This document shows, piece by piece, positions 35,867-63,935 of a stretch of 64,000 nucleotides of DNA (position 1 is the first letter of the stretch; each line of letters starts with the position of its first letter). A model generated the notes under the pieces. It worked only from the letters and a program-made list of their open reading frames with translations. It was not told the DNA's origin and searched no databases. Position numbers and translations under genes: made by a program. The DNA is from Nitrospirota bacterium. GTDB taxonomy: Bacteria > Nitrospirota > UBA9217. The stretch covers positions 864,001 to 928,000 of the forward strand of contig CAWCKW010000012.1 in the NCBI GenBank assembly GCA_963796285.1, given 5' to 3'.

Positions 35867-35913
35867 AAAATCACATACCCCCAAAAGGTTGTTATTGAAT
35901 GTTGCATTTTACT

Positions 35914-47930: not shown

Positions 47931-47939
47931 GCCGACAAC

Positions 47940-47960: not shown

Positions 47961-47989
47961 CTCAATTTCACAACAAAGAGAGAGGATCC

Positions 47990-48562
47990 ATGAATATAAA
48001 GCTGCTGTCCGCACTGCTGATCTCATGTGCGTTCATGATGGCCCTTACCGTCTACTCACCGCTTCAGGCGGGCAGCGGGCCGGACGAGGTCCTGTCCGCG
48101 CTCGAAAAGACCTTCGATATGATACCCGAAGACGGGTATATCATCTCTGCCGATACCCTGTACACCAGAATGAAATCAGGCAAACAGGATTTTGTGATCA
48201 TTGATACCCGTCCGCATATAGAAGATTTTGAAGCTGGTCATCTTCCCGGCGCTCTCTTTGTCCCCTGGCGGGAAATCGTCAAGGAGGACAGTCTCAAAAA
48301 GCTGCCCAAAGACAAGGACATTATTCTTTATTGCAGCACGGGACATCTGGAGAACCAATCTCTCATCGCATTGCGGACACTCGGCTACAAGGCCTATGCC
48401 TTAAAATGGGGAATGATGTCCTGGGCCGAGACAAGACAATCTGATCAGGCCCGGGAAGAGATAAACAAGGCCAGAAAGGCGGGTTATCCTGTCGAGAAAG
48501 GGATGGACGCCAAGCTCAGGGAAGAGTATAAGAAAAAGATGCTGCAACACATGGGCTGCTAA
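47990..48562 (+). CDS. Exported rhodanese-domain sulfurtransferase with C-terminal Gly-Cys
   Basis: Signal peptide, IIDTR, GHLPGA, active loop YCSTGH, LKWGMMSW, ends QHMGC. Confidence 0.9.
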   Translation: MNIKLLSALLISCAFMMALTVYSPLQAGSGPDEVLSALEKTFDMIPEDGYIISADTLYTRMKSGKQDFVIIDTRPHIEDFEAGHLPGALFVPWREIVKEDSLKKLPKDKDIILYCSTGHLENQSLIALRTLGYKAYALKWGMMSWAETRQSDQAREEINKARKAGYPVEKGMDAKLREEYKKKMLQHMGC

Positions 48563-48886
48563 ATAACCGCTATGCTTCTTTATCCGGCTTCCTGTCGAAG
48601 AATCAAAGACATCAAGATAATCTCTTGAGAAATGCCCGCCGCAGGTTCAGTGACTTGAAAATAACCTAAAATTTGAATTTTATATGTAATTCCGAGGTTG
48701 AAAAATGATTATATATGGTTTAATATCAATCATTATACGATTGCAATGGATATGGGGAAGGGACGGGTAGTGTTGACATGAACAATACAATCGTCTTTGT
48801 TCTACGGGTTCGCATCATCCCGGTTCGACGGCAGCCTATCTCATACCCGGCTTACTTGAGAGTATGCACTCTTCAGGAGCCTCGGC

Positions 48887-50671
48887 ATGAAAATACATAA
48901 CGTGATCAGTCATGCGGAGGATTTGCTCTCCGTGAATTACAAGGAGTCTTTGCTCAGGTACGTGGTCTTTCACCTGGATGATGTAGAAAGCGGGCATTCA
49001 GCGATCAGTCGGAAAAGGCTTCTTTTCCTCACCTTTTTTGTCTTGGCCGCTGTCGCCTCCGTATCAGTCGTCGAATGGCTCTTCATTCCAATGGCACACG
49101 ATCGCCTCTTTGTGGATGCTTCAAAACACGCGAACCTTGAAATATTCTGCGGTCTCATCTCAGGTATCATTGCATTTATCCTGACGTGGGAATATCAGGT
49201 TTCGGGAAAGAAGAACATACTCTGGCTTGTTTTTGCGTTTTTTTCGATGGGCATCCTCGACATTTTTCATGCTTTTTCCAACCATGATCACTACGCGTTT
49301 ATCTGGTTCCACTCTCTCAGCGCCTTCTATGGATCTGTATTCCTCGCGGTTTCAGCCTTTCAGAACGGGAAAATAAGCGACCCCGCAAGATCATCGTGGA
49401 CGAGAAGCGGTCATGTTGCATCGGGGTTCGTCTTGATCGTTCTAATCGCCCTGTTCGCCCTGCTGACCCCGAGATTGGACGAGTTCATTCCCAACGTCCT
49501 GTCAATGTCGCTGCCGCACAAGGTACGCGCGGTCGATGTGCGAGGACAATTCAGCAATCTCATTTATGCCGTCAATTTCATATCGGGCATATTGTATCTC
49601 CTTGTGGGCATCGTTTTCGTGAAGGGATTTCTGAAAACAAGCGACGTCATTTACCTGATCTTCGGGACCGCCGCGCTCCTTCTCTCTGAAAGCGAACTGC
49701 TGTTCGCGTTTTCAAACCTCTGGGACCCCCTCTGGTGGTACTGGCATATTATCAAGGTAATGATCTTTTCCGGCCTGCTCATAGGCCTTGCCTACGGTTT
49801 CACCCACACCGTCTACCGCCTTCATGAATCAAGGATAAAGCTTGCGGCCGTCCTTCGGGAGATCGAAAAGAAAAATTTCGAAATCCGCGATGCTTATGAT
49901 CGTCTGAAAGAAACACAGAAATATCTGAAGGAATCGGAAAAGTTTGCCTCCCTAGGCAAAATGTCCGCCATGGTGGCACATGAGATCAGAAATCCTCTCG
50001 GCGCCATTTCCAATTCCCTTGGTGCACTCAAGCGCTACAGCTCCATGGGCCGCGACGATCTCGAATTGATAGGGATCGTCGAGAAGGAAATGGACCGGCT
50101 CAACAACATGACCGAGGATTTTCTGAGCTTCGCCCGCCCGTCGCAGCTCAAGAAGGAGGCGACCGATATCCATCCCCTCATCGAGGAAACGATCGCGCTG
50201 CTCCGGAACGGCGAGAAGGGCTGGACGGAGGTCCGGATCGAGCGCTCCTTTGCGCCGGACATGCCGAGTCTGATGCTCGACGAGAACCGATTCAGGCAGA
50301 TCCTGCTCAACGTGCTGATCAATGCCCGGCAGGCGACGCCGGCGGGAGGAGAAATATCCATTTCAACACGGCTCAAACGGTCCGAGAACGAGGTGGAGAT
50401 CACGATCGCCGATACTGGTACCGGCATGTCCCAGGAAGTACTGTCGCAGGTTTTTCAACCTTTTTTCACGACAAAAGACTCTGGACTGGGCCTGGGGCTC
50501 AATATCGTGCACAAGATCGTGAAGGAACACGGTGGATACATACTTCTCTCGAGCACCCTGACTAAGGGGACCCATGTTCAGCTCATTTTTCCCGCCCCCG
50601 GGAAAGATGAGACCGCTAACGAAGATGTGAGCACGCATGAAGGGGAACGGCCGTTCCGAGGCGGGGAGTAA
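48887..50671 (+). CDS. Membrane sensor histidine kinase (multi-TM, MASE3-like input)
   Basis: Several TM helices; H-box AHEIRNPL, N-box NVLINA, DTGTG, FFTTK, GLGLGL. Confidence 0.9.
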   Translation: MKIHNVISHAEDLLSVNYKESLLRYVVFHLDDVESGHSAISRKRLLFLTFFVLAAVASVSVVEWLFIPMAHDRLFVDASKHANLEIFCGLISGIIAFILTWEYQVSGKKNILWLVFAFFSMGILDIFHAFSNHDHYAFIWFHSLSAFYGSVFLAVSAFQNGKISDPARSSWTRSGHVASGFVLIVLIALFALLTPRLDEFIPNVLSMSLPHKVRAVDVRGQFSNLIYAVNFISGILYLLVGIVFVKGFLKTSDVIYLIFGTAALLLSESELLFAFSNLWDPLWWYWHIIKVMIFSGLLIGLAYGFTHTVYRLHESRIKLAAVLREIEKKNFEIRDAYDRLKETQKYLKESEKFASLGKMSAMVAHEIRNPLGAISNSLGALKRYSSMGRDDLELIGIVEKEMDRLNNMTEDFLSFARPSQLKKEATDIHPLIEETIALLRNGEKGWTEVRIERSFAPDMPSLMLDENRFRQILLNVLINARQATPAGGEISISTRLKRSENEVEITIADTGTGMSQEVLSQVFQPFFTTKDSGLGLGLNIVHKIVKEHGGYILLSSTLTKGTHVQLIFPAPGKDETANEDVSTHEGERPFRGGE

Positions 50672-52015
50672 ATGGCAAAGATACTGGTAATAGACGATCA
50701 GGACGGAATGAGGCGAAGCCTTGTGATCCTCTTGCGGAAAGAGGGTTATGCCGTGGAAGAAGCGGAAAACGGAGAGCGTGCCATTGCTCACCTCGGGTCA
50801 GGTCAATTCGATCTTGTTATCACTGACCTGAAAATGTCGCCGGGCACGGGACTCGACGTCCTGTATTATGTCCTCGAAAGACATCCTCAGACCGACGTGA
50901 TCATCATGACGGGGTACGGTACGGTCGATTCCGCCGTTCTGGCCATGAAACTCGGGGCCTTCGATTACATCGTAAAGCCTTTTAAGAACGAAGAGATACT
51001 CCACCGGGTAAGAAAGTCCCTTGCTCATAGAGAGTCGGAACGGGAGATAGCGGTCCTGCACACAAAAAAGGACATCGAGATCTCCATCCTCGGAGACAGC
51101 GATGCAACAAAAACGCTGATCGCCATGATACGCAAGATCGCTCTAGTTGACCTGACTGCCCTTATATCCGGAGAGACGGGTACAGGAAAGAACCTCGTTG
51201 CCAAAACAGTGCACAGCCTCAGTTCCAGGAGCGGGAAACCTTTTGTGGCCATAAACTGTTCGGCCATCCCGGAACACCTGCTGGAAAGCGAGCTGTTCGG
51301 CCATGCTAAGGGAGCGTTTACCGGGGCGATCCTTGAGAGGCAGGGTTTATTTGGAGCAGCGGATGGCGGGACCCTGTTCCTCGATGAGATCGGCGCCATG
51401 CCGTATGCCATGCAGGCAAAGCTGCTCGACGTCCTGCAGGAACATACGATCCGACGGCTCGGCGAGAACAAACAGAGGACTGTGGACGTCAGGATCATCG
51501 CTGCCACGAACCGGGACCTTGAACAGGCCATTGAGGACGGCACGTTCCGGGAAGACCTCTACTACCGTATCAAAGTCACCCGAGTTCACATCCGGCCGCT
51601 CAGGGAGAAGCCTGATGATATTCCCGTCCTGACCCGGCACTTTTTAGACGACGTCAGAATCCTTCATCAAAAGCCTGATATTGACCTGTCGCCGGATGCA
51701 CTGGAATTCCTTCTTCGGTATGATTTTCCCGGGAACGTGCGTGAACTGCAGAACATCATAACCAGCGCAGCCGCACTCGCAACTGGGTCCCTGATCACGG
51801 TGCCCGATTTGTCTCTCGGGTTTACGAACCAGCTGTTTGATGTTTCCGTCGGAACGACAGGTGAGGCAAATCCCGGCACCCTGGAAGAATGGGAAAAAGA
51901 TATCATCGTGAAGAGCATCGAAAGAAACAACCATAATCTCGGAAAGGTATGCAGCGAACTGGGAACCAGCAGGACAACGCTCTGGCGTAAGATGAATAAA
52001 TACGGTATTACATGA
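50672..52015 (+). CDS. Sigma54-dependent response regulator (NtrC family)
   Basis: REC, GETGTGK, ESELFGH, GAFTGA, FLDEIG, FPGNVREL, Fis-type HTH. Confidence 0.95.
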   Translation: MAKILVIDDQDGMRRSLVILLRKEGYAVEEAENGERAIAHLGSGQFDLVITDLKMSPGTGLDVLYYVLERHPQTDVIIMTGYGTVDSAVLAMKLGAFDYIVKPFKNEEILHRVRKSLAHRESEREIAVLHTKKDIEISILGDSDATKTLIAMIRKIALVDLTALISGETGTGKNLVAKTVHSLSSRSGKPFVAINCSAIPEHLLESELFGHAKGAFTGAILERQGLFGAADGGTLFLDEIGAMPYAMQAKLLDVLQEHTIRRLGENKQRTVDVRIIAATNRDLEQAIEDGTFREDLYYRIKVTRVHIRPLREKPDDIPVLTRHFLDDVRILHQKPDIDLSPDALEFLLRYDFPGNVRELQNIITSAAALATGSLITVPDLSLGFTNQLFDVSVGTTGEANPGTLEEWEKDIIVKSIERNNHNLGKVCSELGTSRTTLWRKMNKYGIT

Positions 52016-52019
52016 AAAC

Positions 52020-52316
52020 CTACTTGAGCCAGCCGACCAGATCTATCGTTAAATGGAAGTTCTGACCTTCTTCTTCCCGGACCATCTGGTAAAACCTGCA
52101 TTTCCGGCAATCCTCATATTTCCTGGCAAAGCTCCCCTGGGCCTCTCCACCGCACATCGTGCCCGCAATGATCCAACATACCCGGCCCGCATTTTCCCCT
52201 CCATGAGTACTGTCAAGCTTAGCGCAAGTCACGGCAGGGCATACCCCGAGCACTGCCGCATTGCTCCCTCCGGATTCTCTCCCGCACTTCATGACTTCCC
52301 AGCAGTTCTTCTTCAT
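52020..52316 (-). CDS. Two-CW domain Cys-rich protein
   Basis: NCWEVMKCGRE...CPA...CWIIAGTMCGG...CRKCRFY. Confidence 0.8.
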   Translation of the reverse strand: MKKNCWEVMKCGRESGGSNAAVLGVCPAVTCAKLDSTHGGENAGRVCWIIAGTMCGGEAQGSFARKYEDCRKCRFYQMVREEEGQNFHLTIDLVGWLK

Positions 52317-52429
52317 TTCTCAGTCCTCCGCCGGACATTTTCTTTGTGCCCCTTCTGCCGCTCATAACCGCGAACCGCTTGTGAATATTCTTTGACGCTA
52401 TATATTACCACTATAGCTTTTTAAATAAA

Positions 52430-52802
52430 GCCACATTCAGCTCTGAAATGCAACAAATGAGCGAGCGACTTTCAACGGTGTTGTGAAGTCCAGACACTTA
52501 CTGGGTCTGTTGTTGATAAGCTTCTCGATTTTCTTTATTAGCTCTTTGTCAATCTGACTGAAATCAGTGCCATTGGAAAGTAGCTTTCGAATGAGGCCGT
52601 TTATCCGCTCATTCGATCCTCGTTGCCACGCTGCAAAGGGATGGGCAAAGTAGCACGGAAAAAGCCTTTGCCTTCCAACGCATTGATGCTATGAGCTAAC
52701 GCTCTGTTTCGTTAGGATGAACATAGCTTTTTGTCATAGACACTTAGAATAGCAGATTCCTTCCTGCATACCCAAATGTTGCACTTCACAATTGAATTTG
52801 CG
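52430..52802 (-). mobile_element. Internally deleted IS30-family element
   Basis: 26-bp imperfect terminal IRs (19/26); transposase start scrap MTKSYVHPNETER* joined to C-terminal YFAHPFAAWQRGSNERINGLIR..YFPMGTDF..INNRPSKCLDFTTP. Confidence 0.85.
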
Positions 52803-52967
52803 TTACTTATGTGCTATCTCTTCATCATCACCGCCTTTTATCGCCTTTTTAAAGGACTGGATGCTTTTACCCAGCCCTTCGCCGAGTTGCGGCAGACGGT
52901 TTGCGCCAAAGATTACAACCACTATGACCAAAATAACCATCAATTCCGGCAGTCCTAATCCAAACAT
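52803..52967 (-). CDS. tatA: Twin-arginine translocase TatA (island copy, 54 aa, absent from ORF track)
   Basis: Manual translation [54 protein letters not shown]; AAGGAGG RBS. Confidence 0.9.
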
Positions 52968-53035
52968 GTTTCCTCCTTAAATATGCAGGGTTTTAATGTA
53001 ATGCTATCGATCAGACTTTCATTATTTCTGTAGCA

Positions 53036-53371
53036 TCAGACTTTTTCCTCCTTCCAAAGAAGCGTACGCCAAGACTGCACGTGCTCATTCTCCGCTTGTT
53101 CATATTCCGCCACGCCTTTCGGTACAACGGTCTGTTCATGTCCAACGGCGGTGATCTCCTGGCCGATCGTCTTGAGTTCCTCAACTTGAGCGGTCTTTTC
53201 CACTTCCTTCATTTCTTCCTTTACGGAATCCTGAAACTCCTGCGAAGCCTTCTTGAACTCTGCTATGGCCCGACCGACGGACCTTCCCAGAGCCGGCAAG
53301 CGCTTGGGGCCAAACACAACTAGCGCTATCACAAAAATAACCATCAATTCCGGAATTCCGAAACCAAACAT
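53036..53371 (-). CDS. TatA/TatB family translocase subunit
   Basis: MFGFGIPELMVIFVIALVVFGPKRLP.LGRSVGRAIAEFKKA. Confidence 0.88.
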   Translation of the reverse strand: MFGFGIPELMVIFVIALVVFGPKRLPALGRSVGRAIAEFKKASQEFQDSVKEEMKEVEKTAQVEELKTIGQEITAVGHEQTVVPKGVAEYEQAENEHVQSWRTLLWKEEKV

Positions 53372-53735
53372 GATTTTCTCCAGTTTTTTCCGTTGGGCTT
53401 AGTACCATAAAAGATGGGCGAGCAGCGTTTTCCCCGCCTGTCTGCTCTATCACTACTTCCATTTGCGAATGCATTCCATGGAAAACGTTTTGCACTGTTC
53501 TCCCACACTCTTTGCGAGAGGGTAGAAAATCCTGTTTATCGCGGTGGAAACGCACCACACCGCCTGCTGAATAATGCAATCTCCTGGCCAGACTGCCAAG
53601 CTCATCGCCAGTCCCAAGAGTTAACGGCAGAACGTCGGAAACTCGCCGCGCATAGTCCATCCTACGGCATGTCACGGGACTCATAATAAATCGCTTTAAG
53701 GACAGGTGAGTGGTCCGTCATGGCGAATGTCACCT

Positions 53736-54275
53736 CTACATTCCCTCCCTGAGCACCCATTGGTTCGTTCGCGGCCGCACCCAATAAGCGCTCTCCCCTG
53801 CATCTTTACCGTCTCCGGGAGAAAAGGCACCGGTGAATGTGAGCTTATACCTGAACCGCACATTCACGTCACCCTCATGGTTTCTGTACAGGTGATGAGC
53901 CGCGGGCGATAGGGTGATGATCTCCTTTGCCTTCCATTTCCCTGCGCCGACCATGGCGAGCCCGCCGCTGTGCGCCGGTCCGCCGGCCATGCGGCGATCG
54001 AGTTCAATCCATTGACCGAGTATCTCGCTCTGCGCGGAAAAACTCGCCTCATATCCTTCCAATTCCAAGGCCCCGCCGGACCTGTTTCCTATGGCAGTTT
54101 CTACAAGATACTCGTCGTTGTTCAGATAAGTGATGTTCACAACTTCTACGGTGAGGTGGTCCGGTATCATATCTCCTGCAAAGCCGGCGCCGGTAAGGGA
54201 ACACAGAGCAACGAAGATACAGATATGGGCTGTTTTTTTTATGCCGGCGTTTAACATGCCTTGAGCAACGATCAA
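53736..54275 (-). CDS. Exported hypothetical protein (distant paralogue of the 54704 and 55384 proteins)
   Basis: Signal-like N-terminus; shares Y....I.N, Q...W.E, (E/K)IIT, (N/H)VRF and Y..(R/K)P pattern. Confidence 0.7.
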   Translation of the reverse strand: MIVAQGMLNAGIKKTAHICIFVALCSLTGAGFAGDMIPDHLTVEVVNITYLNNDEYLVETAIGNRSGGALELEGYEASFSAQSEILGQWIELDRRMAGGPAHSGGLAMVGAGKWKAKEIITLSPAAHHLYRNHEGDVNVRFRYKLTFTGAFSPGDGKDAGESAYWVRPRTNQWVLREGM

Positions 54276-54685
54276 CGGGCTACGTGAACAGTAAAAACTG
54301 CCGAATCATCTTTTTCGCCCTCACGCAACTTGAGGTACACATCCCAGTCTCCCGGCATGGTGAAGTTTATTCCTTCTACACGATACTGCCCTTTTCCGAG
54401 GTATGTTACCACCGCAATATCGCTCGAGCCGTGCTCCATGGCCGTCATCCAGGGTATCACATCCATGTCCAGCTTTCTTTCAATGGGCTTCATGGATTTT
54501 ATGTCGTTTATTTTGACGGTCATGTTGTTTTTGCCTACCGTTACCGGATTTGCGGCGCACTGCACATCGATCGAGTAGAATCCCTGTTCGCTATTGATTC
54601 CTTTCTGCTCGAAGGCCATCAGAAATAAACTCACGACCAGGATGGAGAAAAATCCTGTCCACCGGATCATCGCATCTCTACGCAT
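54272..54685 (-). CDS. YtkA/FixH-like exported protein
   Basis: PWMTAMEHGS, GQYRV..INFTMPGDW motifs. Confidence 0.8.
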   Translation of the reverse strand: MRRDAMIRWTGFFSILVVSLFLMAFEQKGINSEQGFYSIDVQCAANPVTVGKNNMTVKINDIKSMKPIERKLDMDVIPWMTAMEHGSSDIAVVTYLGKGQYRVEGINFTMPGDWDVYLKLREGEKDDSAVFTVHVAR

Positions 54686-54703
54686 TGTTTTTTCCTCCTT
54701 CGC

Positions 54704-55330
54704 CTAATGGGGCGGCATCGGTATCATAACTGGTATCTTATTATCAGGAAATTTCACCTGCCGGGCAATTTCCCGGTCAGGCATGTAATAGGGCTTCAGA
54801 TACATATAGGCATCGGAATACCGGTCAACGACCTCTTCTTCCTTGAAGGCGCTTTCCGGCAGCACGAACAGGGAAAGACGGACACGGACGTGCATGTAAC
54901 CAAACATCTGATAATAGCTGTATTTTATAGAGCGGCTGATCGTGATAATCTTCCGGTAACGATGGACTCCCGGTTCGATTCGGATGACCTGCTCCTCCGC
55001 TTTTCGTTCGCCCTCGCTTACCGGGACTTCCGTCCAGGACATACCGGTCTGAACGTACGCAACCGCTTGCGGATAGGATATATATACAGGCTCATCTGCC
55101 AGGTTTTCTATCTTGATAACAATCTCGTATTGCCCCGGCTTTCCCTTGATGATCCGTGCGTCCTCGACGTCGGGCATGATCTGATAGAAGGCCCGTTTTT
55201 GCAGCCGCTCCTTTTTTGCCTCCTTTTCCCTGATGATGGCGGTCTCTTTCAGCCCGACCAGGTAATCAGCGGCAACGAAGAGGAGGACAACCCCGATAAG
55301 AGAGGCGACCAGTTTTCTTTTCCTGAGCAT
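54704..55330 (-). CDS. Membrane-anchored hypothetical protein (paralogue pair)
   Basis: N-terminal TM; AYVQTGMSWTEVPV, YMHVR, YLKPY shared with the next gene. Confidence 0.8.
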   Translation of the reverse strand: MLRKRKLVASLIGVVLLFVAADYLVGLKETAIIREKEAKKERLQKRAFYQIMPDVEDARIIKGKPGQYEIVIKIENLADEPVYISYPQAVAYVQTGMSWTEVPVSEGERKAEEQVIRIEPGVHRYRKIITISRSIKYSYYQMFGYMHVRVRLSLFVLPESAFKEEEVVDRYSDAYMYLKPYYMPDREIARQVKFPDNKIPVMIPMPPH

Positions 55331-55383
55331 TTCTGTAATCTCCCCCGTCTCAATCTCCAGAACGAGCGCAGCCCGGACGTCAA

Positions 55384-56058
55384 CTAGTTCCAGTTCCTGA
55401 ACGACGATATGGGCATATAAACCGGGATCTTCGTGTCACCGAAATCTATCGCCTTAGCGATTTCCCTTTGGCTGATCCAGTAGGGTTTAAGGTAAATGTA
55501 GATATCGCTCTTCCTTTCCACGACTTCTCCCTCCTTAAAACCGCTTTCCGGAAGGACATCCATGGTTATATAGAACCGCACATGCATGTACTTCGGGATC
55601 AGGTATTTGTTGTAGGGTAAACGCTGGGAGACCGTAAGTATTTTTCTGAAAAGCAGGTGGCCTTCTGCGATCTTGTATACCTGTTCCTGTTTCTCACCGG
55701 TCTTTTCCGCCACGGGCACTTCTGTCCACGAGATGGTTCCGGTCTGAATGTAGGCCTTCACTGATGGGTGCGTCAAGTAGGCCGGCTCTTCACCGACGTT
55801 GTCTATCCGTACGAGCAGCTCATAACGTCCCGTGCGGGTGATGCCGGCCGTTTCGGTGATATCACGAACATCGACGGAAAGCATGCGAAACGCCTGCACC
55901 TCGAGGCGTTTAATCGCTGCTTCTTTCTCCCTGATAATACTTTCCTGCCAGCGCCCGACAACCATGTCAGCAAGCAGAAGGACGACAATTATTGCCGCGA
56001 CCGAAACGGCTATTTTCCTGCTTTTCAGTGCGGCGAGTATCGCAGTTCTGTTTTTCAT
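55384..56058 (-). CDS. Membrane-anchored hypothetical protein (paralogue pair)
   Basis: N-terminal TM; AYIQTGTISWTEVPV, YMHVRF, YLKPY. Confidence 0.8.
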   Translation of the reverse strand: MKNRTAILAALKSRKIAVSVAAIIVVLLLADMVVGRWQESIIREKEAAIKRLEVQAFRMLSVDVRDITETAGITRTGRYELLVRIDNVGEEPAYLTHPSVKAYIQTGTISWTEVPVAEKTGEKQEQVYKIAEGHLLFRKILTVSQRLPYNKYLIPKYMHVRFYITMDVLPESGFKEGEVVERKSDIYIYLKPYWISQREIAKAIDFGDTKIPVYMPISSFRNWN

Positions 56059-56087
56059 GCCTGCACCCTTTCATATCGGCGCCGGCC

Positions 56088-56831
56088 TTATGTCGGACAG
56101 ACCGGGCACAAGGAGGGCTCATCCTTTAGCAGCACGCCGTCCTTCATTTGAATGATACGGTCGGAGCTATTGGCTATCTCAAGGTCATGAGTGGAAAATA
56201 CTATGGTTATCCCCCGTTCGCGGCAAAGTCGTTTAAAGGTCTCGATAACGAACAGCCGGTTATCCCGGTCGAGATTGGCGGTCGGTTCGTCGGCAAGGAT
56301 GACTGCCGGACTGGTTATCAGCGCACGGGCAATGGCCACGCGCTGGATTTCTCCGCCGCTTAGCTGGCTCGGCATATGGTAAAGCCGGTGCCCCAGCCCC
56401 AAGGATTTGATGATCTCTATTCCGGTGTCCTTTATGTTCCCGTTGCTGTGCTTCGGTTTGAAAAAGCTGAAGGGGAGCAGGGTGTTTTCGAGCACGTTCA
56501 GCATACGCAGCGGTTTTGCGTCCTGAAATATAAAGCTGAACTTCTCTCTGCGGAACTGGACCAGTTTCTCTTCCGACAAACTGTCGATCCTGACCCCCTC
56601 CAGCAGTACCTCCCCCTGGGACGGTTTATCAAGAGCACCGATGATATTGAGAAGGGTGGTCTTGCCGGACCCGCTCGGTCCCACGAGTGCGACCAGCGTG
56701 CCCCTTCCGATACTGAGAGAAATGCCGTCGAGTGCCTTTACCTCCCCCGACGCCAGTCTGAATGCCTTGCTGACATCCCGAAGTTCCAGGAATGTTTCCC
56801 CTTCGTTGTTGTCCAAAATCACACCTCCCAC
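56088..56831 (-). CDS. ABC transporter ATPase, LolD/MacB type, with C-terminal CxxC
   Basis: GPSGSGKT, LSGGEIQRVAIAR, ADEPTANLD; ends CPVCPT. Confidence 0.92.
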   Translation of the reverse strand: MGGVILDNNEGETFLELRDVSKAFRLASGEVKALDGISLSIGRGTLVALVGPSGSGKTTLLNIIGALDKPSQGEVLLEGVRIDSLSEEKLVQFRREKFSFIFQDAKPLRMLNVLENTLLPFSFFKPKHSNGNIKDTGIEIIKSLGLGHRLYHMPSQLSGGEIQRVAIARALITSPAVILADEPTANLDRDNRLFVIETFKRLCRERGITIVFSTHDLEIANSSDRIIQMKDGVLLKDEPSLCPVCPT

Positions 56832-58009
56832 TGGGATCTGAAGCTGTCGGATATTTTTATCCCCGACAGCTTGTAGGTCGGGTAAAAACCGGCCACCAAA
56901 CTGCAGAGAATACCGGAAGCGACAGCAGCAAAAAACACCGTGAGGCTAAACCGGACGCCTGCGCCAAGGTTCAGAACAAAGGAATCGAGGACGTAGGTCA
57001 TGAACATGCCGATCGGATAACCCACGATACCGGCCGCAAGGCCCATCGCGGAGTACTCGCCGAGAAGAACGAGAAGCAGCTGCGACCGCGATGCGCCCAC
57101 GGTCTTCAGCAGGCCAATCTCCCTGATGCGGGAATAGAGAACACTCGTAACGATATTGAAGATAGCGAATATGCTGATGAACACCGTTGCGGCTACGATG
57201 GAAAGAAGAAATTTGAAGGTTTTCTTGAGAAAGATATACTTCATCGTGCTGAACTGCTGGGGTACGAGGGTCTTGACATCAGGAATGGTGCTGTTCAATT
57301 CAGTGACAACATCGCGCAGGAGGTCCCGGTCCCGGTCAAGGGAAACATTCTGCACATTTACGAGCGACACGAAACCTTTTTTATCGGAAAGGGCCTGGAG
57401 AACCCTGAATGGGACAAAAACCATATAATCGTCGGAGACGTTATAATTTTCAAGGATACCCGCAACCGTAAAGGCCCTGCCGTCCACCGAGATTACCGCA
57501 TTCTCCGAGAGATTGTTCGCGCGGGCAAAAGTCCCGCCTATCACAGCCTCCCCTTCTCCCGTCGGCCATTGCCCGCTCGCCAGACTCCAGGACGGTTTGG
57601 CCGCCCGTTCGGATTGAAAATCGATACCGGCGACGACCGTACTGACGGAAGACTTCCGGATCACGGCATCCGTCCGCTGGTATATACGCGGCGCGATGAT
57701 AATCGCTTCTTGCTTGTTCCCTGTCCTTCTCCTGACAATCCCCTCAATTGACTCAATGACGGTCTCCGGCAGGAACTCATCAATCACCACACCGATCTGA
57801 TCGATCCGTTCGACCTTGATGTTCTTCGGCTGCACAGTCATGGTAAAGCCGAATTTCAAGGCGAGGGTTGCGAGGGACCTGTCCGCGTTGTCGACCGTCA
57901 GCAGGATCGTACTGAGAATAACCACAGGAATAAGCATGGCGGTCAGCAGATATACGCTTTTCCCCTTTCTCCGCGTTATGTCTTTAGTCGCGAGCGACAA
58001 TAAGTTCAC
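56819..58009 (-). CDS. ABC transporter permease, FtsX/MacB type
   Basis: TM + periplasmic domain + REIGLLKTVGA + 3 TM. Confidence 0.9.
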   Translation of the reverse strand: MNLLSLATKDITRRKGKSVYLLTAMLIPVVILSTILLTVDNADRSLATLALKFGFTMTVQPKNIKVERIDQIGVVIDEFLPETVIESIEGIVRRRTGNKQEAIIIAPRIYQRTDAVIRKSSVSTVVAGIDFQSERAAKPSWSLASGQWPTGEGEAVIGGTFARANNLSENAVISVDGRAFTVAGILENYNVSDDYMVFVPFRVLQALSDKKGFVSLVNVQNVSLDRDRDLLRDVVTELNSTIPDVKTLVPQQFSTMKYIFLKKTFKFLLSIVAATVFISIFAIFNIVTSVLYSRIREIGLLKTVGASRSQLLLVLLGEYSAMGLAAGIVGYPIGMFMTYVLDSFVLNLGAGVRFSLTVFFAAVASGILCSLVAGFYPTYKLSGIKISDSFRSQWEV

Positions 58010-59467
58010 CTAAACCTCCCACTCGGTTCGAAACGTTTCCGTGATTTTTATGCCCGACAGTTTATATGCCGGGTAATAAATGGCGAGGAGGCTGCAAATA
58101 ATGCCGAGAGTCAGTGCGTGCCATAGCACGCCAACCTCGACCCGGACGACAGCTCCAATACCGAGGAACGTATTCATGATATGCGCCATGCCGACACCCG
58201 CCGCAAATCCGCCGAGCCCCGCAATGATCCCGATTATAAGATGTTCGTACAGAAATATCCTGAGAAGCTGAAAACGCGATGCGCCGACCGCCTTGAGCAG
58301 GCCGACCTCCCGCGCCCGCGCGTACAGAGAGCCGGCGACAATGTTGAAGATCGAAAAGATACCCACAGCGATGGTGGCAACCACGACTGCCAACAGGAAG
58401 CGATACAGCATATTAAAAAAGTCGTACTGCAAGCCAGCGACGTCGAGCTGGGAGACCGCGGTAATGCCAGTGATGTTCTTGTTCAGCTCCACCATGGCGT
58501 CTCCAACGGGGCAGTTAGGGCACATGGCCCTGACGCTCAGCAGCGATATAAATCCTTCCTTGTGAAACATTTTCTGGGCCGTCAGCAACGGAATGAAGAC
58601 CATATAATCATCGGCGGAGTTCGTTTCCTCCAGGACGCCCATGACCTTGAATTGCCGCGATGCAACCGTCATGGTATCTCCGACTTTCAGTCCCCTGGCG
58701 GCAGCATACCCCCCCCCGAGATAGGCATCGTTTCTGGTCTCATCGGCAGCTCCATGCCCATAGGCAAAATGGCGCAGCTTATCGTCTGATGACCCGGCAG
58801 CGTTGCCATGTTGGCCGTCATCGTATACGGTCTTCCCCTGTTCATCAAGCCGGTATTTCGGCTTCTTCACGGTTACCTGTCCGTCGCGCCCCATGACATA
58901 CATGGCATCGATCTTCGTATCGACATTCTTAACATCCACATCTTGCGGCCACTCGCCGCTGGACAAGGTCCACCAGAAACGGACGAAATATTCCTTGCTG
59001 ATATCGATTCCCGTAACGATAGCCTCATGACCGTCCACCACCGCCTTCACGTAGAGCCGGGGCGCCCAGGTCGGCGGTTCGATGCTCGTGTCTGGGATTC
59101 CCGGGTTGCTTACCAGCCCGCCTTTCCGTTGCCATCCCTCCCTAATTGCCTTGTCATATGTCTTTGAAATCTCCTGCACCGCCGACTCGGGTATATATTT
59201 ACCGAAAACCACCTCCGAAATGGTGAGGTTCTGCAGTGCACTCTTGTCCACCTCGTCGATAGCGGCGGTTATGACGGGACGAACGGTCAGCGTATGACCT
59301 GTCTTTGTGATCACTTCCAGAATGTTTGACGTCGCCGAAGTGCTTACGATCGAAAGCGAAGACAGGAGCGCAACGGATATGACGATCGCAAAGACGATCA
59401 GCCCGCTCTTTTTCGGCCTTCGCATCAGGTCAAGTAGCGCAAATTTCAGGATGGTCATGGCTTGCAA
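58010..59467 (-). CDS. ABC transporter permease, FtsX/MacB type, with insertion and CxxC
   Basis: REVGLLKAVGA; periplasmic MCPNCP; insertion containing His residues relative to its paralogue at 56819. Confidence 0.9.
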   Translation of the reverse strand: MQAMTILKFALLDLMRRPKKSGLIVFAIVISVALLSSLSIVSTSATSNILEVITKTGHTLTVRPVITAAIDEVDKSALQNLTISEVVFGKYIPESAVQEISKTYDKAIREGWQRKGGLVSNPGIPDTSIEPPTWAPRLYVKAVVDGHEAIVTGIDISKEYFVRFWWTLSSGEWPQDVDVKNVDTKIDAMYVMGRDGQVTVKKPKYRLDEQGKTVYDDGQHGNAAGSSDDKLRHFAYGHGAADETRNDAYLGGGYAAARGLKVGDTMTVASRQFKVMGVLEETNSADDYMVFIPLLTAQKMFHKEGFISLLSVRAMCPNCPVGDAMVELNKNITGITAVSQLDVAGLQYDFFNMLYRFLLAVVVATIAVGIFSIFNIVAGSLYARAREVGLLKAVGASRFQLLRIFLYEHLIIGIIAGLGGFAAGVGMAHIMNTFLGIGAVVRVEVGVLWHALTLGIICSLLAIYYPAYKLSGIKITETFRTEWEV

Positions 59468-60186
59468 ATCTTTCCCATCAAGGCTTCAACGGGATCTGCT
59501 ACATCCCGATACAAGAACCCGTCCTTCATGACGACAACAGTCTTAGCAGATTCGAGCCAGGTGAGGCTGTGGCTCACAACGATTATGGTTTTTTTGTATT
59601 GCGTGTTGATCATCCGGAAGATGTCAATGACCTCCTGCTCCGTTCTGATATCGAGTTCGCCGGTCGGCTCGTCGGCAAGGATAATATCGGGGTCGTTTAT
59701 GAGCGCACGCGCAATGGCCACCCGCCGCTGTTCCCCCCCCGACAGTTCCGAAGGATATGACTCGATCTTTTTCTTCATGTCGAGGCCCTCGAGGATGGAT
59801 ATCGCACGATCTCGGACGACATCCGTATCGCGGTCCCCGTTCTTGTTGAATATCACAGGCATAACGACATTGTTGAGGACGTTCAGCGTCGACAGCAGGC
59901 TGAAGGACTGGAATACAAAACCGATCTTGCGGTTCCTCAGGATGGAAAGTTCCCGGTCGTTGAGTTTCCAGATGTCAACGCCATCGATTGATACGGTCCC
60001 CTCGGTTGGTTTCGTAAGCCCACCGATGGTGCTGATGAGCGTGGTCTTACCTGATCCCGAATGGCCCATAAAGACCACGAAATCAGACGAAGGAATGTCG
60101 AGATCGATGCCCTTCAGGGCCTCAACGCGCTGATCGCCCAGATTATAGATCTTCTTTAGAGCACGAGTCCGAATGAAGTCTGCCAT
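59455..60186 (-). CDS. ABC transporter ATPase, LolD/MacB type
   Basis: GHSGSGKT, IGFVFQSF, LSGGEQRRVAIAR, ADEPTGELD. Confidence 0.93.
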   Translation of the reverse strand: MADFIRTRALKKIYNLGDQRVEALKGIDLDIPSSDFVVFMGHSGSGKTTLISTIGGLTKPTEGTVSIDGVDIWKLNDRELSILRNRKIGFVFQSFSLLSTLNVLNNVVMPVIFNKNGDRDTDVVRDRAISILEGLDMKKKIESYPSELSGGEQRRVAIARALINDPDIILADEPTGELDIRTEQEVIDIFRMINTQYKKTIIVVSHSLTWLESAKTVVVMKDGFLYRDVADPVEALMGKICKP

Positions 60187-60187
60187 G

Positions 60188-61402
60188 TCATAACCCCTGC
60201 TTCATAGTTTCGTGAGGATCTATCCTCACGGCGAGGATGGCCGGATACATCGACCCGCTTACCCCCATGATAAGAGCCACCCCGATCGCTCCCACCATCA
60301 TTGATGCGATCATTTCGAAGGGCGGCAGCATAAACGGTATGTTGAGCAGGTTCAGGTAAAAGATAATCGACCGTTGGAACAGTTTCAGGAGAACTCCCCC
60401 GATGACCATGCCCATAAAGCCGCTGATGATGCTGATCAGGGTCGACTCATAAAGAATGAGCATGAATATATTGGCTTTCGTAGCCCCGATAGCCCTGATA
60501 ATGCCGATTTCTCTTTTGCGTTCATTCACAACAGCGGAGAATATGGCATTAATCATAAGGACATTGGAAAGAATGAGGACAACGATGAGCACGATGATGC
60601 CAAAAAATACGGCGACCGTCGTCTGACGAGCCGAGGTCGCGATATTTCCCGTGGTCACCACCTTCAGACTGGGATTATCCTTCAGGATCGAAAATGTGAT
60701 GAACGGGATCTTTGCCCCTACGTCGAGTTGGACCAATCCGCCGGATATCCTGTTTCTCAGCGGCGCAAGAGGCTTCACCAAGGAATCGCTCTGCGACTTC
60801 TCGGACATTTCATAGGCCCGGTCGATATTGAAAAAAACGGCGTTATCGTACAATCCGATCCCGGTCCGTTCGAGCTTGGCCCATACTTTCAAACGAACAC
60901 CGTAGAATTTAAGGCCGTCCTCCAGATTCCAGGGCGTCATTGCGCCGACAATCGCTCCATCGGGCGGGAACGGTTCCTTTGCGCTCTTGTCCACCCACGG
61001 CATCACGGTGAAATCATCTTTGGGATTGAAACCAATGAGAAATGAATTTCCCATGACGCAGCAATCTCCCGTTGCACTGGTCAGAAAAATCTGTCCCGAT
61101 ACCTTCTTAACGCCCTTCAGCACCCGTATCTTGTCGAGCACTGCGCTGTCCATATAAAAGGCGGAAGGCTCTCCCGTCAGGAGCGCCGACTTGAGATTTA
61201 CCAGGGATTCCTTGGGAATTACGAGCAGGTCAGCCCCGAGTTTCGAGAGGCCCTGGTTAAGAGTGTGGTTGATCCCCATAATCAGGATAGAACTTGCAAA
61301 GAACGCCCCGATGACAATGCTAACGCTGACCAGAATGATGTAGAAACGCAGATGTTTCACCTGTAGATTCTGATAAGCAAGTCCAAAGAGAGACCTGATC
61401 AT
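60188..61402 (-). CDS. ABC transporter permease, FtsX/MacB type, with vicinal CC
   Basis: KLGADLLVIP, GDCC, ERKREIGIIRAIGA. Confidence 0.9.
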   Translation of the reverse strand: MIRSLFGLAYQNLQVKHLRFYIILVSVSIVIGAFFASSILIMGINHTLNQGLSKLGADLLVIPKESLVNLKSALLTGEPSAFYMDSAVLDKIRVLKGVKKVSGQIFLTSATGDCCVMGNSFLIGFNPKDDFTVMPWVDKSAKEPFPPDGAIVGAMTPWNLEDGLKFYGVRLKVWAKLERTGIGLYDNAVFFNIDRAYEMSEKSQSDSLVKPLAPLRNRISGGLVQLDVGAKIPFITFSILKDNPSLKVVTTGNIATSARQTTVAVFFGIIVLIVVLILSNVLMINAIFSAVVNERKREIGIIRAIGATKANIFMLILYESTLISIISGFMGMVIGGVLLKLFQRSIIFYLNLLNIPFMLPPFEMIASMMVGAIGVALIMGVSGSMYPAILAVRIDPHETMKQGL

Positions 61403-61457
61403 GTTTAATCTCCCATGGTCGCGGGATATATGGTCGCGCCATCGTGCATCGGGCCTT

Positions 61458-61497
61458 AAACCCCTTGATGGGGAGCTAGTCTTCCATCAAGGGGTTT
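61458..61497 (-). terminator. Hairpin between the TcDH gene and the ABC genes
   Basis: AAACCCCTTGATGG-N12-CCATCAAGGGGTTT, 14-bp stem with only a short U-tract. Confidence 0.7.
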
Positions 61498-61532
61498 TCG
61501 ACATTCCGCGCGGGTCGCCCGCGAATAGTTTG

Positions 61533-63071
61533 CTAAGTGGTAGGGCACCTTGAAAACGCTAGACCGGCAACCGATTTTGGTACGATGACGGAATCGTGGC
61601 TGCCGTAAGGGCTCGGCAGATAACCATAAAATTTGTCATCCTTGACACGGACCACGTAGGTCCCGGTCTTGGTCTTCTGATAACCACTGAACACGCCGAA
61701 CAGCCATTTCCCGTCATCGGTGATCGCGATTGTGTGCGTGTCCGGTCCTATATCTATGGTCTTGGTAATTTTCCAAGTCTTGGTGTCGATAGCGGCAATG
61801 CCGTTCGTGCTCGGGGATGGCCACCAGAGCGTGACATACATCTTGCTGCCATCGGGCGTAAAGCACATGTGGAACGGATTAGGATAAGCACCGCGCCAGC
61901 TGGGATCTCCGACTCCCGCAATTCTTCTCCAACTCGTAGGATCTGACTGATTGCTCGAATCGAAGACCGCCATAATGTTCTCCCGGCTGTTGTTCATGAG
62001 GATAAAACGGTTTCCGTCGGGACTGAAGCCCGCCTGATGTGCCGGCGTGGGAACATTCTTAAAGACAGCCTTCCATTCCCCGTTGCCTACTTTCTGTACC
62101 GGTACCTGGAAGCCCTGCTTGGCATGCTTATCGGATCCCACGCAGATGGCTTTCGGTTCCCACGTGGTCGTATCGAAAACGACGCCGCATCCGGGGAGGC
62201 GGAGGGCTGCAATAGCATAGTTCTTGTGGTTCGGATCCCAGCAAAGGGAGTCGAGGGCGACGAGGTTCTTCAGCCGGGGGCCGGGCACTTTCCCCTGCTC
62301 AGCGAAAAGTTCACCGCCGGGAACAAGCTCCCAGTCAGTCTTGCATCCCTTGGTCCCTTTCAGGTCGTAGGGGGCATGAAGCTTTTTGATGGTGAGCGTT
62401 CCCCCGTCCAACCAAACCCGCGAAAGTTCCGAATTGTTATACTCCCAGTCAAAGAGGACTGCGGCCTCCACGGTAGAATGACCCGCGCCTTCACCCTTCT
62501 TGAATACCGCCATGATGTCCTTCTGGCCGTCACACACGGAGAACCGTTTGTTATCCGGCGCCACAGTGACGTGCACACCAAGGCCGATGCCCGTAGTTTC
62601 CGCAACGTCTTCCAGGACGTTCATCTTGGTGCCATCGTAATTGCATCTCCAGATATTGAACCCTTCTGCGGGGTCCTTCACGGGTGTGGTCACACCGTAG
62701 ATATACAGGTTTTTCCCCCCCTGGGAATCGACGATCCACTCGAATTCCTTGTAGGGGTCTGGAGAAGCAAATGCGGCGAGATGGTGAACGATGGGTGTTT
62801 TATTTCCGGCCCATATGCTCATATTCATCGAGGCAAGACATTGACCGGTCGACATATCATGGGCGGCGACGCCGCCGGCGAACTTGCCCGGGACCAGATG
62901 AATGTATTTCCCGATCTGGTCGTAGACATCCTGGAACGTAGGGTCCCCGAATATGCCGGCTTCAGCGGTGTTGGGTGACATGCCAACTCTTATGGAACCC
63001 ATTTTGGATGCCAAACCGGCTGCTGCACTTGCAATACCAAACTTGAATAAACCGCGTCTCGTTAGTTTCAT
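61533..63071 (-). CDS. tcdh: Thiocyanate dehydrogenase (thiocyanate desulfurase) homologue, Tat-exported copper beta-propeller
   Basis: TRRGLFK Tat signal; matches the recalled Thioalkalivibrio TcDH along its length: PGKF, HHLAAF.SPDPYKEFE, QGGKNL.IYG, GLGVHVT, DGQKD, DWELVPGGEL, HQAGFSPDG, WRGAYPN.FHM, WWPSP, GPD.HT, SGYQ, LPSP.G.HD. Confidence 0.92.
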   Translation of the reverse strand: MKLTRRGLFKFGIASAAAGLASKMGSIRVGMSPNTAEAGIFGDPTFQDVYDQIGKYIHLVPGKFAGGVAAHDMSTGQCLASMNMSIWAGNKTPIVHHLAAFASPDPYKEFEWIVDSQGGKNLYIYGVTTPVKDPAEGFNIWRCNYDGTKMNVLEDVAETTGIGLGVHVTVAPDNKRFSVCDGQKDIMAVFKKGEGAGHSTVEAAVLFDWEYNNSELSRVWLDGGTLTIKKLHAPYDLKGTKGCKTDWELVPGGELFAEQGKVPGPRLKNLVALDSLCWDPNHKNYAIAALRLPGCGVVFDTTTWEPKAICVGSDKHAKQGFQVPVQKVGNGEWKAVFKNVPTPAHQAGFSPDGNRFILMNNSRENIMAVFDSSNQSDPTSWRRIAGVGDPSWRGAYPNPFHMCFTPDGSKMYVTLWWPSPSTNGIAAIDTKTWKITKTIDIGPDTHTIAITDDGKWLFGVFSGYQKTKTGTYVVRVKDDKFYGYLPSPYGSHDSVIVPKSVAGLAFSRCPTT

Positions 63072-63165
63072 TTTACGCTCCTTTTGTCTGTTATTTTATT
63101 TTAGATCCCGCCCTGATGAATCACTACGTTAAGCACCCCTTTTCGCCTCCTCTCATGCTCAAGAT

Positions 63166-63181
63166 AGCAAAACGCATGCCC
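63166..63181 (-). promoter_or_regulatory. Sigma54 -24/-12 promoter of the tcdh operon
   Basis: Minus strand GGGCATGCGTTTTGCT = GG-N10-GC with TTGCT, 95 bp upstream of the start codon. Confidence 0.85.
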
Positions 63182-63196
63182 AACCATGCCTATTTT

Positions 63197-63209
63197 CAAC
63201 TAACTGATT
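63197..63209 (-). promoter_or_regulatory. IHF-type binding site
   Basis: AATCAGTTAGTTG fits WATCARNNNNTTR; lies between promoter and enhancer. Confidence 0.65.
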
Positions 63210-63245
63210 TATTGGAATCCCTAGAATGGAACGCACAGACTATAT

Positions 63246-63291
63246 TTTCAAAGTGAAACATTGAAATGAAGGTGGTTTTCCAATGTGAAAC
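63246..63291. promoter_or_regulatory. Tandem upstream activator sequences
   Basis: TTTCAAAGTGAAAC (63246) and TTCCAATGTGAAAC (63278), near-palindromic, 32 bp apart. Confidence 0.65.
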
Positions 63292-63615
63292 GTTTTTTGC
63301 CGATAAAGCTTACATTATAATATTGTGTTGACACTGCCTGGAATGACGGACATCTGAGCATCGGCTATGAATACAATGACAACCATGACGATGCGACTGT
63401 CGGCATGGGTCCCTCCAAACTTATGACTCTGATATGGTAGACAGTGTCAGGATCAGCAAACCTGCATTCCGCACTGTTATCTTATGTACTCATGAAAGTG
63501 ATCATTGCAATCATTGAACAATCGCATGCTTCCACCCTTCATGGCCTGGTTTATGCCGCGCATTTTTTACGAAACTTCGAGAAGCGATGTGAAAACGTAT
63601 AATTATAATTTTACA

Positions 63616-63644
63616 TTGACAAGCTTTTTTGTTCGCCTTATATT
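63616..63644 (+). promoter_or_regulatory. Sigma70-type promoter, probably giving a leaderless mRNA
   Basis: TTGACA-N17-TATATT, 6 nt before the ATG at 63651; no SD. Confidence 0.7.
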
Positions 63645-63650
63645 GCAAAC

Positions 63651-63935
63651 ATGAAATGGAAGGCCATCATCATACTTTTGGCAATCGCCCTCAGTATCGT
63701 TGTTCCTCCATCGCTGCCTTTTCTGTCCGATCAAGGCGCGATGGCAGCAATTGGGACTCTTGATATCTGCCATTCCTCAACGCCTGCCCTGTCTTCAAAC
63801 GGCGACATGCCGTGTATCAATGAGTGCCCCTGCGGTCCCCTTCCTATGGAGCTGGAAAACGCAGCGGAAATTGCACCCTCCCCGTGTAAACCTTTCTTGC
63901 TTGCCTATCAAGACGAACGTCCTCCGAAACACTAA
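63651..63935 (+). CDS. Small signal-peptide protein with Cys motifs and C-terminal RPP (CutF/CruR/DUF2946-like leader)
   Basis: Hydrophobic N-terminus, LDICH, PCINECPC, ends DERPPKH. Confidence 0.65.
   Translation: MKWKAIIILLAIALSIVVPPSLPFLSDQGAMAAIGTLDICHSSTPALSSNGDMPCINECPCGPLPMELENAAEIAPSPCKPFLLAYQDERPPKH

Follow-up and report, generated by a model that had tools for sequence, protein, structure and literature searches.

We analysed a 64,000-nucleotide stretch of the genome of a Nitrospirota bacterium (GenBank assembly GCA_963796285.1, contig CAWCKW010000012.1, positions 864,001 to 928,000 of the forward strand; hereafter the window) that carries tcdH, a gene whose product is an orthologue of the copper enzyme thiocyanate dehydrogenase (TcDH). 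The gene lies on the reverse strand near the right end of the window, next to a row of helper genes on the same strand and opposite a divergent set of copper-handling genes that continues beyond the window.

61533..63071, minus strand: tcdH, predicted Tat-exported thiocyanate dehydrogenase, 512 aa (open reading frame call, homology, alignment and structural model)

The reading frame is uninterrupted, starts with ATG and has an AAGGAG motif 6–7 nt 5' of the start codon. In a phmmer search of all PDB chains, its product matched nine distinct TcDH sequences with E values from 4e-175 to 5e-155 (4e-175 for 8q9x and 7e-158 for 5f75; query residues 12 or 46 to 512 covered), and the alignment to 5f75 spans query residue 12 to the final residue. 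The best PDB match outside TcDH was an archaeal YVTN propeller (3.5e-13), and the L-NosZ model scored 15.6 bits against a cut-off of 700, which places the protein outside the NosZ family. A representative library at 50% identity held few full-length relatives, the best at 42% identity, and the product matched no Pfam family at E ≤ 0.01, the TAT_signal model included. The N-terminus, MKLTRRGLFKFGIASAAAGLA, contains a twin-arginine motif (T-R-R-G-L-F-K, residues 4–10) followed by a hydrophobic stretch, and an RR motif is found at the TcDH N-termini of all 13 loci in the clade of the window protein; for Thioalkalivibrio TcDH, the Tat motif is given as [ST]-R-R-x-F-L-K where PMC5328954 describes that signal. 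With the Pfam model silent, the predicted Tat signal, called intact in a preliminary description of the locus, is supported by the motif and its conservation.

As the reference for the active site we used the 13 residues that Tsallagov et al. 2019 (PMC6504805) give in the legend to their Figure 4, to which we added Phe436. Residues were mapped by hand on a HMMER alignment to PDB 5f75, and a MAFFT alignment of 81 rows (the window protein and 80 genomic relatives) gave the same columns. All 13 residues named in that legend, as well as Phe436, are kept in the window TcDH:

K63, in PGKF: Lys103
H96 and H97, in IVHH: His135 and His136
Q117: Gln156
H167, in GVH: His206
E248, in DWELVP: Glu288
D274, in ALDSL: Asp314
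H345, in PAHQ: His381
F400 and H401, in NPFH: Phe436 and His437
H446, in DTHT: His482
H492 and D493, in GSHD: His528 and Asp529
R508: Arg544

The full set is common to 31 of the 81 aligned rows, including those of Thioalkalivibrio thiocyanoxidans and Pelomicrobium, and Gln replaces copper-site His482 in 49 others (loci L034–L082). The Gln-type rows make up a separate branch, mostly from Alphaproteobacteria, Planctomycetota and Melainabacteria; the PDB also contains H482Q and H447Q variants engineered in the two model TcDH enzymes.

An AlphaFold2 model of the product, built from a 24-row alignment, had a pLDDT of 86.7, with low confidence only at residues 1–41, the signal peptide. The model is a seven-bladed β-propeller with TM scores of 0.95–0.97 and rmsd values of 1.3–1.9 Å to 20 TcDH chains. 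Superposition on Pelomicrobium methylotrophicum TcDH (8q9x, 8z75) yielded TM = 0.97 (target-normalised) and an rmsd of 1.3–1.4 Å at 55–56% identity, and that on Thioalkalivibrio paradoxus TcDH (5f75) TM = 0.95–0.96 at 51% identity. The next-best fold reached TMq 0.48 and TMt 0.61, and NosZ chains reached TMq 0.45–0.47 and TMt 0.43–0.44 (E about 6e-11). TcDH is described as functional in the form of a homodimer in PMC9456337.

The genes around tcdH were compared by tblastn of the window proteins on 31 related TcDH loci (L003–L033). From right to left, the genes and signals are:

63651..63935, plus strand: small exported Cys-rich protein, 94 aa, which opens the divergent copper-handling set
63166..63180, minus strand: sigma-54-type promoter, GGCATGCGTTTTGCT, about 95 nt 5' of the TcDH ATG
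61458..61497, minus strand: hairpin with a 14-bp stem and no U-run, directly 3' of the TcDH stop codon
60188..61402, minus strand: FtsX-type ABC permease, 404 aa, first helper gene, with a homologue beside TcDH in 31 of 31 loci
59455..60186, minus strand: ABC ATPase 1, LolD/MacB-like (profile matches, tblastn on loci)
58010..59467, minus strand: FtsX/MacB-type permease, 485 aa (profile matches, tblastn on loci)
56819..58009, minus strand: FtsX/MacB-type permease, 396 aa (profile match, tblastn on loci)
56088..56831, minus strand: ABC ATPase 2 (profile match, tblastn on loci)
55384..56058, minus strand: protein I, membrane-anchored β-sandwich, 224 aa, paralogue of H, no named family
54704..55330, minus strand: protein H, membrane-anchored β-sandwich, 208 aa, C-terminus IPMPPH, no named family
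54272..54685, minus strand: YtkA-like domain protein, 137 aa, candidate periplasmic copper chaperone (PF13115, E 3.7e-11)
53736..54275, minus strand: exported protein of 179 aa with conserved homologues at Nitrospirota TcDH loci
53036..53371, minus strand: TatB/TatA-family protein, 111 aa (PF02416, E 3.4e-20)
52803..52967, minus strand: TatA, 54 aa (PF02416, E 1.7e-18)
50672..52015, plus strand: sigma-54-dependent response regulator (NtrC type), with a homologue in 23 of 31 loci and a partial one in 2 more
48887..50671, plus strand: sensor histidine kinase (profile match, tblastn on loci)

Homologues of H and I were found at 28 of the 31 loci, the remaining three being cut by contig ends. Neither protein matched a Pfam or NCBIfam family, and every listed homologue is annotated as hypothetical. 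Protein H gave a confident AlphaFold2 model (pLDDT 90.6), for which Foldseek returned only generic Ig-like sandwiches (TM 0.2–0.5). Homologues of the YtkA-like protein were seen only at Nitrospirota loci. The TatB-like and TatA genes share the strand of the helper genes upstream and are separated from them by a gap. We rejected as a gene the open reading frame at 53181–53684 (167 aa) on account of its odd composition and its overlap, in a different frame, with the TatB-like gene. Following tatA at the operon end is a 98-aa Cys-rich open reading frame (52020–52316, minus strand) that begins MKKNCWEVMKCGRE and has no Pfam family; it may resemble the 'two-CW' N-terminal domain. Past the window end, the divergent set comprises a TlpA/ResA-like thiol-disulfide oxidoreductase, a probable outer-membrane protein, a redoxin, NosL, CopC, CopD and an FtrD-like protein.

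A full helper set is also carried by the T. thiocyanoxidans locus and by a Pelomicrobium sp. locus. In thiocyanate-growing Thioalkalivibrio, the cluster outlined in PMC5328954 consists of TcDH, ABC subunits, two hypothetical proteins and a sigma-54 two-component system, with copCD and tatA nearby, and the window cluster matches this canonical architecture as outlined there. The intact TcDH of the preliminary description is thus borne out by the 512-aa frame, the ligand and catalytic residues, the fold and the operon, and its alignment to the T. paradoxus structure contains no ligand substitution.

With respect to regulation, the exact sigma-54 pattern occurs twice in the window against 0.55 matches expected. 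Within 400 nt 5' of TcDH, the strict motif is present at 13 of the 31 related loci and a looser form at 23. The other exact match in the window is GGCATTCGGCTTGCA at 14647–14661 (minus strand). At the 3' side of tcdH, the 133-nt intergenic RNA has a folding energy of −52.3 kcal/mol (z = −4.54), which none of 200 shuffles equals; the hairpin in it may be an mRNA-stabilising or attenuating element. A search of sequencing runs for the locus returned 20 DNA runs in 11 studies and no RNA run, a result that has no bearing on expression.

On the basis of sequence and the structural model, we consider it likely that tcdH encodes a working periplasmic TcDH (EC 1.8.2.7). In the mechanism that we propose, the folded enzyme would be exported via the Tat pathway, for which the operon has dedicated tatA and tatB genes, and three copper ions would be loaded at the centre of the seven-bladed propeller. 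Loading may be aided by a presumably co-transcribed helper set, namely the two FtsX/MacB-type ABC systems, H, I and the YtkA-like protein, and also by the products of the divergent NosL, CopC, CopD and thioredoxin-like genes, because the helpers accompany TcDH across phyla, H ends in IPMPPH, and NosL, CopC, CopD and YtkA-like proteins are copper-handling families. YtkA has been linked to copper-site assembly. The loaded enzyme would convert SCN− + H2O to cyanate + zero-valent sulfur + 2 H+ + 2 e−, with the electrons passing to a periplasmic acceptor. Thiocyanate would be held between the three coppers in the central tunnel, water would attack its carbon, and the electrons would leave singly to an external acceptor, as put forward for the solved TcDH enzymes in the introduction of PMC9456337. 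Expression would be switched by the histidine kinase and the NtrC-type regulator through the sigma-54 promoter at 63166–63180.

Next, we placed the protein within its family. A survey of one genome per GTDB species returned 367 stretches with a TcDH relative, of which the best 80 were taken further. The nearest tier comprises 13 loci with 71–95% identity, all titled Nitrospirota, Nitrospirae, Nitrospiraceae, Thermodesulfovibrio(nales) or Ca. Sulfobium; 12 are full length, and one (L011) is split by a frameshift. A second tier (50–56% identity) consists of five further Nitrospirota and of Pseudomonadota, Thioalkalivibrio, Pelomicrobium and Thioploca among them, and a third (41–46% identity) mostly of Alphaproteobacteria, Planctomycetota and Melainabacteria with Gln at the His482 position. 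A quick IQ-TREE phylogeny was built from 42 rows; it excluded the frameshifted L011, and of the 49 Gln-type rows 11 served as outgroup and 38 were dropped. The window TcDH fell inside a 13-row clade made up of Nitrospirota only (SH-aLRT 100), with a stem of 0.78 changes per column. This clade is sister to the five other Nitrospirota (95), and both together are sister to 12 Pseudomonadota (99). TcDH proteins of the second Nitrospirota clade (L016, L017, L018, L024, L027) have Sec-like N-termini with no twin arginine, e.g., a lysine-rich start followed by a hydrophobic stretch.

The distribution of the gene is patchy. At least 18 Nitrospirota species genomes in public data carry TcDH, unannotated. 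The gene is present in 5 of 64 genomes of the host's order (this genome counted) and in 9 of 401 genomes sampled across the phylum, and it was not found in any of the eight other species of the host's genus. Cyanase occurs within 10 kb of TcDH at only 1 of the 80 loci, L003, whose TcDH is 89% identical to the window protein; there the cyanase gene (213 bits against a cut-off of 150) is found 1.06 kb upstream of TcDH on the same strand, and, together with a split IS630-family transposase, takes up the stretch directly upstream of TcDH (L003:6604–8919). Among five other TcDH-positive Nitrospirota genomes, one has a cyanase, adjoining TcDH.

The host itself had been placed by the preliminary description outside the Gamma- and Betaproteobacteria, with Nitrospirota among the candidates, and the additional data agree. 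The titles of the 13 nearest TcDH loci point to this phylum, and the non-TcDH flanking genes of two of them, L003 and L004, match other parts of the host genome at 70–97%. Of the three organism names visible among the Rel homologues, two are Nitrospirota or Nitrospirae and one is Betaproteobacteria. From these sequence comparisons we assign the host to Nitrospirota. The Betaproteobacteria label belongs to P0382, a Rel protein 87% identical to that of the window whose neighbours in the list are Nitrospirota or Nitrospirae, and is probably that of a mis-binned record. The reading of Rel/SpoT as bifunctional was confirmed (TIGR00691, 831 bits). The Clp ATPase called ClpC rather than ClpA scored below the ClpB and ClpA equivalog cut-offs, which fits ClpC and stops short of proving it.

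The host genome amounts to 3.58 Mb in 13 contigs (96.2% complete, contamination estimate 5.04%), and the contig with tcdH measures 2.06 Mb. The genome contains dsrA (split over two frames), a dsrN-like gene, dsrC, dsrM and dsrK, aprA (912 bits), formate dehydrogenases and a PhsA/Psr-like molybdoenzyme. It also has cytochrome bd at two loci and several divergent haem-copper oxidase (PF00115) homologues, one of them fragmented. For the direction of the Dsr pathway, reductive or oxidative, the sole cue was a weak TusC/DsrF-like match (35 bits). Several core genes are split: one haem-copper oxidase gene lies in at least five pieces, dsrA occupies two frames (G000:C13:69167-70310 is among the split-gene sites), and in the window (28028–30122 and 33220–35884 region) PNPase matches its model only from position 185, the rest being held by an upstream frame, and IF-2 has an overlapping upstream frame. 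These splits resemble assembly indels from long reads more than pseudogenes, and tcdH is whole. In-frame TGA codons in a formate-dehydrogenase-like frame and in the dsrB region (G000:C13:493617-497123, C13:68190-68996) may reflect selenocysteine or sequencing error.

We then compared the setting of the block with related genomes. At the left edge of the TcDH block, the window holds a c-type cytochrome with five haems (ExtKL-like, 135 bits, below cut-off) together with an exported rhodanese (46668–48562, plus strand). Both are also found in a congeneric genome without TcDH, and therefore lie outside the TcDH unit. In the congeneric genome G043, a MacB-type gene comes no more than 400 bp after the rhodanese, whereas its counterpart in the host is located 25 kb further on. 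The intervening stretch of approximately 23 kb, running from the histidine kinase gene through the FtrD-like gene (48.9 kb to approximately 71.4 kb in window numbering, past the window end), has no counterpart in the 40 kb of G043 that were examined, and a second congeneric genome (G050) has only divergent copies of four copper/redox genes at the same place. The block thus has the appearance of an island. Its operon core is 91–98% identical to that of L011, after which identity falls to 61–67%, and the regions flanking the cluster upstream in L003, L004 and L011 correspond to differing parts of the host genome. Identities to three relatives in other genera were 95, 90 and 87% for TcDH, 86, 85 and 78% for Rel, and 89–95, 91 and 89% for the Clp ATPase, so that the housekeeping proteins are only slightly less conserved than TcDH. 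Composition gave no transfer signal, with a block GC of 0.518 against 0.534 ± 0.022 for the contig and a tetranucleotide correlation of 0.926 against 0.942 ± 0.079, and no tRNA gene that could serve as an integration site was found in 36000–64000. A candidate 'empty site' joint in run X1 (48685 to 63766, skipping 15,080 bases from the histidine kinase to TcDH) was discarded, its shorter side being 20 letters long; no repeat was seen. Exchange of the TcDH block among related genera, as opposed to vertical descent with loss, is plausible from these comparisons and not proven.

Our best guess for the physiological role is an accessory trait of Dsr/Apr-bearing Nitrospirota of peat, wetland and soil, which would draw electrons and sulfur from thiocyanate at oxic–anoxic interfaces. 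The cyanate + sulfur/thiocyanate couple, which we estimate from standard free energies at approximately −0.17 V, is low enough to reduce cytochromes c and quinones. A micro-oxic role is the best guess because the cytochrome bd and haem-copper oxidases are the only high-potential sinks for which genes were seen. The sulfur would enter the Dsr/Apr system of the host, and the cyanate would presumably be released, since no cyanase was found there.

Several observations weigh against the proposed function and role. In the 96.2% complete host genome, searches did not find cynS (best tblastn E 2.1), NrfA or the cbb3 subunit CcoN, and returned nothing above cut-off for NarG and NapA; the oxidase genes that were seen are limited to cytochrome bd and divergent, partly fragmented haem-copper oxidases. 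An organism with the complete cyanate pathway would combine TcDH with cyanase, sulfur oxidation and a respiratory acceptor, and of these no cyanase was found in the host. No cytochrome c gene lies within the TcDH block, and CytC552, the TcDH partner in Thioalkalivibrio, is called typical of that genus in the relevant passage of PMC9456337. With 0 of 8 congeneric species carrying the gene, TcDH is not core to the lineage's way of life. Finally, the long stem of the Nitrospirota clade leaves room for second-shell changes that could alter the substrate or the acceptor.

The alternative that survives best is that the protein is a true TcDH used only for scavenging nitrogen or sulfur or for detoxifying thiocyanate, with no role as an energy source and with its electrons dumped on any periplasmic carrier. 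It would explain a block with no dedicated cytochrome c, fccAB or terminal oxidase, a host in which no cbb3 oxidase or nitrate reductase was found, and the rarity of the gene in the order and the phylum (5 of 64 and 9 of 401). However, without a cyanase the nitrogen of cyanate would not be readily usable by the host, and a large, tightly regulated and well-conserved operon, with a core 91–98% identical to the one in a relative from another genus, points to strong selection in its favour. We regard this alternative as possible, with the balance of probability clearly against it. More speculative, and in our view rather unlikely, is a bolder form of the role that we prefer, in which Dsr/Apr-bearing, Thermodesulfovibrionia-like Nitrospirota of peat, wetland and sediment would use the His-type TcDH under anoxic or micro-oxic conditions, pass the sulfur into Dsr/Apr for oxidation, disproportionation or reduction, and export the cyanate to neighbours such as nitrifiers. 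If true, this would amount to an unrecognised non-proteobacterial thiocyanate sink and cyanate source in freshwater anoxic soils, encoded by a block exchanged among related genera.

Less probable still is that the same fold and copper site serve another natural substrate, some small sulfur or selenium nucleophile present in anoxic sediments such as selenocyanate, polysulfide, thiosulfate or an organic thiocyanate, and that thiocyanate turnover is at most a side activity. The clade stem of 0.78, the anaerobic look of the host (dsr, apr, the PhsA/Psr-like molybdoenzyme, no cyanase found), the rhodanese and five-haem cytochrome beside the block, and the hint of selenoprotein use in the in-frame TGA of the formate-dehydrogenase-like frame could all be taken in this sense. 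Yet the protein agrees with the two characterised enzymes at all 14 first-shell and catalytic positions, the modelled backbone lies within 1.3 Å rmsd of solved TcDH, a cyanase adjoins the 89% identical TcDH of L003, and the rhodanese and cytochrome, found also in the TcDH-less congeneric genome, fall outside the unit. We judge another natural substrate improbable and retain thiocyanate.

An artefact, with tcdH derived from a contaminating proteobacterium or a chimeric contig, is very improbable despite the 5.04% contamination estimate and the frameshift-split genes of the assembly (e.g., PNPase, dsrA), given that tcdH lies 925 kb into the 2.06-Mb contig, that both flanks are syntenic with two congeneric genomes (68–96% identity), that the GC and tetranucleotide values of the block are ordinary for the contig, that a 455-nt short-read contig of another run bridges the left junction (48526–48974), and that the nearest relatives of tcdH are all Nitrospirota. 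Contigs of four other metagenome runs, labelled peat, soil, wetland and sediment, cover the operon region at ≥95% identity; one contig of 6.6 kb from another run spans 57240–63337, and no coding-region indel is among those listed. Chimerism at the locus, which the preliminary description had named as a way in which its claim could fail, is thus unlikely.

Together, these comparisons suggest that thiocyanate oxidation probably reaches beyond the known proteobacterial hosts. Relative to the literature searched, the Nitrospirota host phylum and the Nitrospirota-only TcDH clade are new, and the enzyme itself is a clear orthologue of solved TcDH. Among the papers listed for 'thiocyanate dehydrogenase', no title names Nitrospirota, and no paper was found that joins thiocyanate with Thermodesulfovibrionia, or thiocyanate with Nitrospirae and 'cyanate pathway'; these searches did not extend to supplementary tables. 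In the papers examined that mention thiocyanate along with Nitrospirota or Sulfobium, TcDH is either placed in a Thiohalobacteraceae bin or given no host, and supplements of metagenome surveys (e.g., PMC12663961) may already list tcdH in Nitrospirota bins. Work on the cyanate pathway has dealt with a few sulfur oxidisers among the Proteobacteria, most of them halophiles or alkaliphiles, and the complete, conserved operon of Nitrospirota that bear genes of the sulfate-reducer type suggests a wider reach. Since related DNA occurs in peat, soil, wetland and sediment metagenomes, TcDH may act in ordinary freshwater anoxic soils and in another physiological setting. The clade would also supply a new marker for bioremediation and for sulfur- and nitrogen-cycle studies. 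It may escape primers and HMMs trained on Gammaproteobacteria, and its genes are annotated as hypothetical in databases. It also offers a natural test case for the assembly of the three-copper site and for the electron acceptor that serves when a CytC552-type partner is absent.

Among known systems, TcDH of Pelomicrobium methylotrophicum (8q9x, 8q9y, 8z75) shares the propeller, the active-site residues and a Tat-type signal with the window protein, and the helper genes of the window recur at the Pelomicrobium sp. locus L025. The two differ in host phylum and in the position of the window protein in a separate Nitrospirota-only clade with a long stem; relative to 8q9x, the window TcDH has four extra residues near 193–196 and five fewer near 233. 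The enzymes of T. paradoxus and T. thiocyanoxidans (5f75; Berben et al. 2017, PMC5328954) have the same active-site residues at 51% identity, and their cluster, so far as that paper sets it out, follows the same logic of ABC subunits, two hypothetical proteins, a sigma-54 two-component system, copCD and tatA. Compared with the cluster set out there, the window has three permease genes instead of two, extra YtkA-like and 179-aa genes (seen at Nitrospirota loci only), and NosL and thioredoxin-like genes, whereas fccAB and a small cytochrome c are missing from the block. Judged by its sulfur genes, the host, unlike Thioalkalivibrio, is no haloalkaliphile and no sulfur oxidiser of the Calvin-cycle type. 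The Gln-type relatives (Afipia, strain THI201, Reyranella, Methylocella, Planctomycetota, Melainabacteria) belong to the same family and have most of the helper genes, but carry Gln at His482 and are only 41–46% identical, whereas the window TcDH keeps H446 and groups with the characterised enzymes; Afipia is presented as a thiocyanate degrader that uses a Gln-type TcDH in the account of PMC8061750. NosZ with NosL and NosDFY is alike in pairing a periplasmic seven-bladed propeller and a His-ligated multi-copper centre with an ABC system and a NosL-family protein, and differs in that the window TcDH has no CuA domain, uses another ligand set for another reaction, and is accompanied by ABC systems of the FtsX/MacB type rather than NosDFY.

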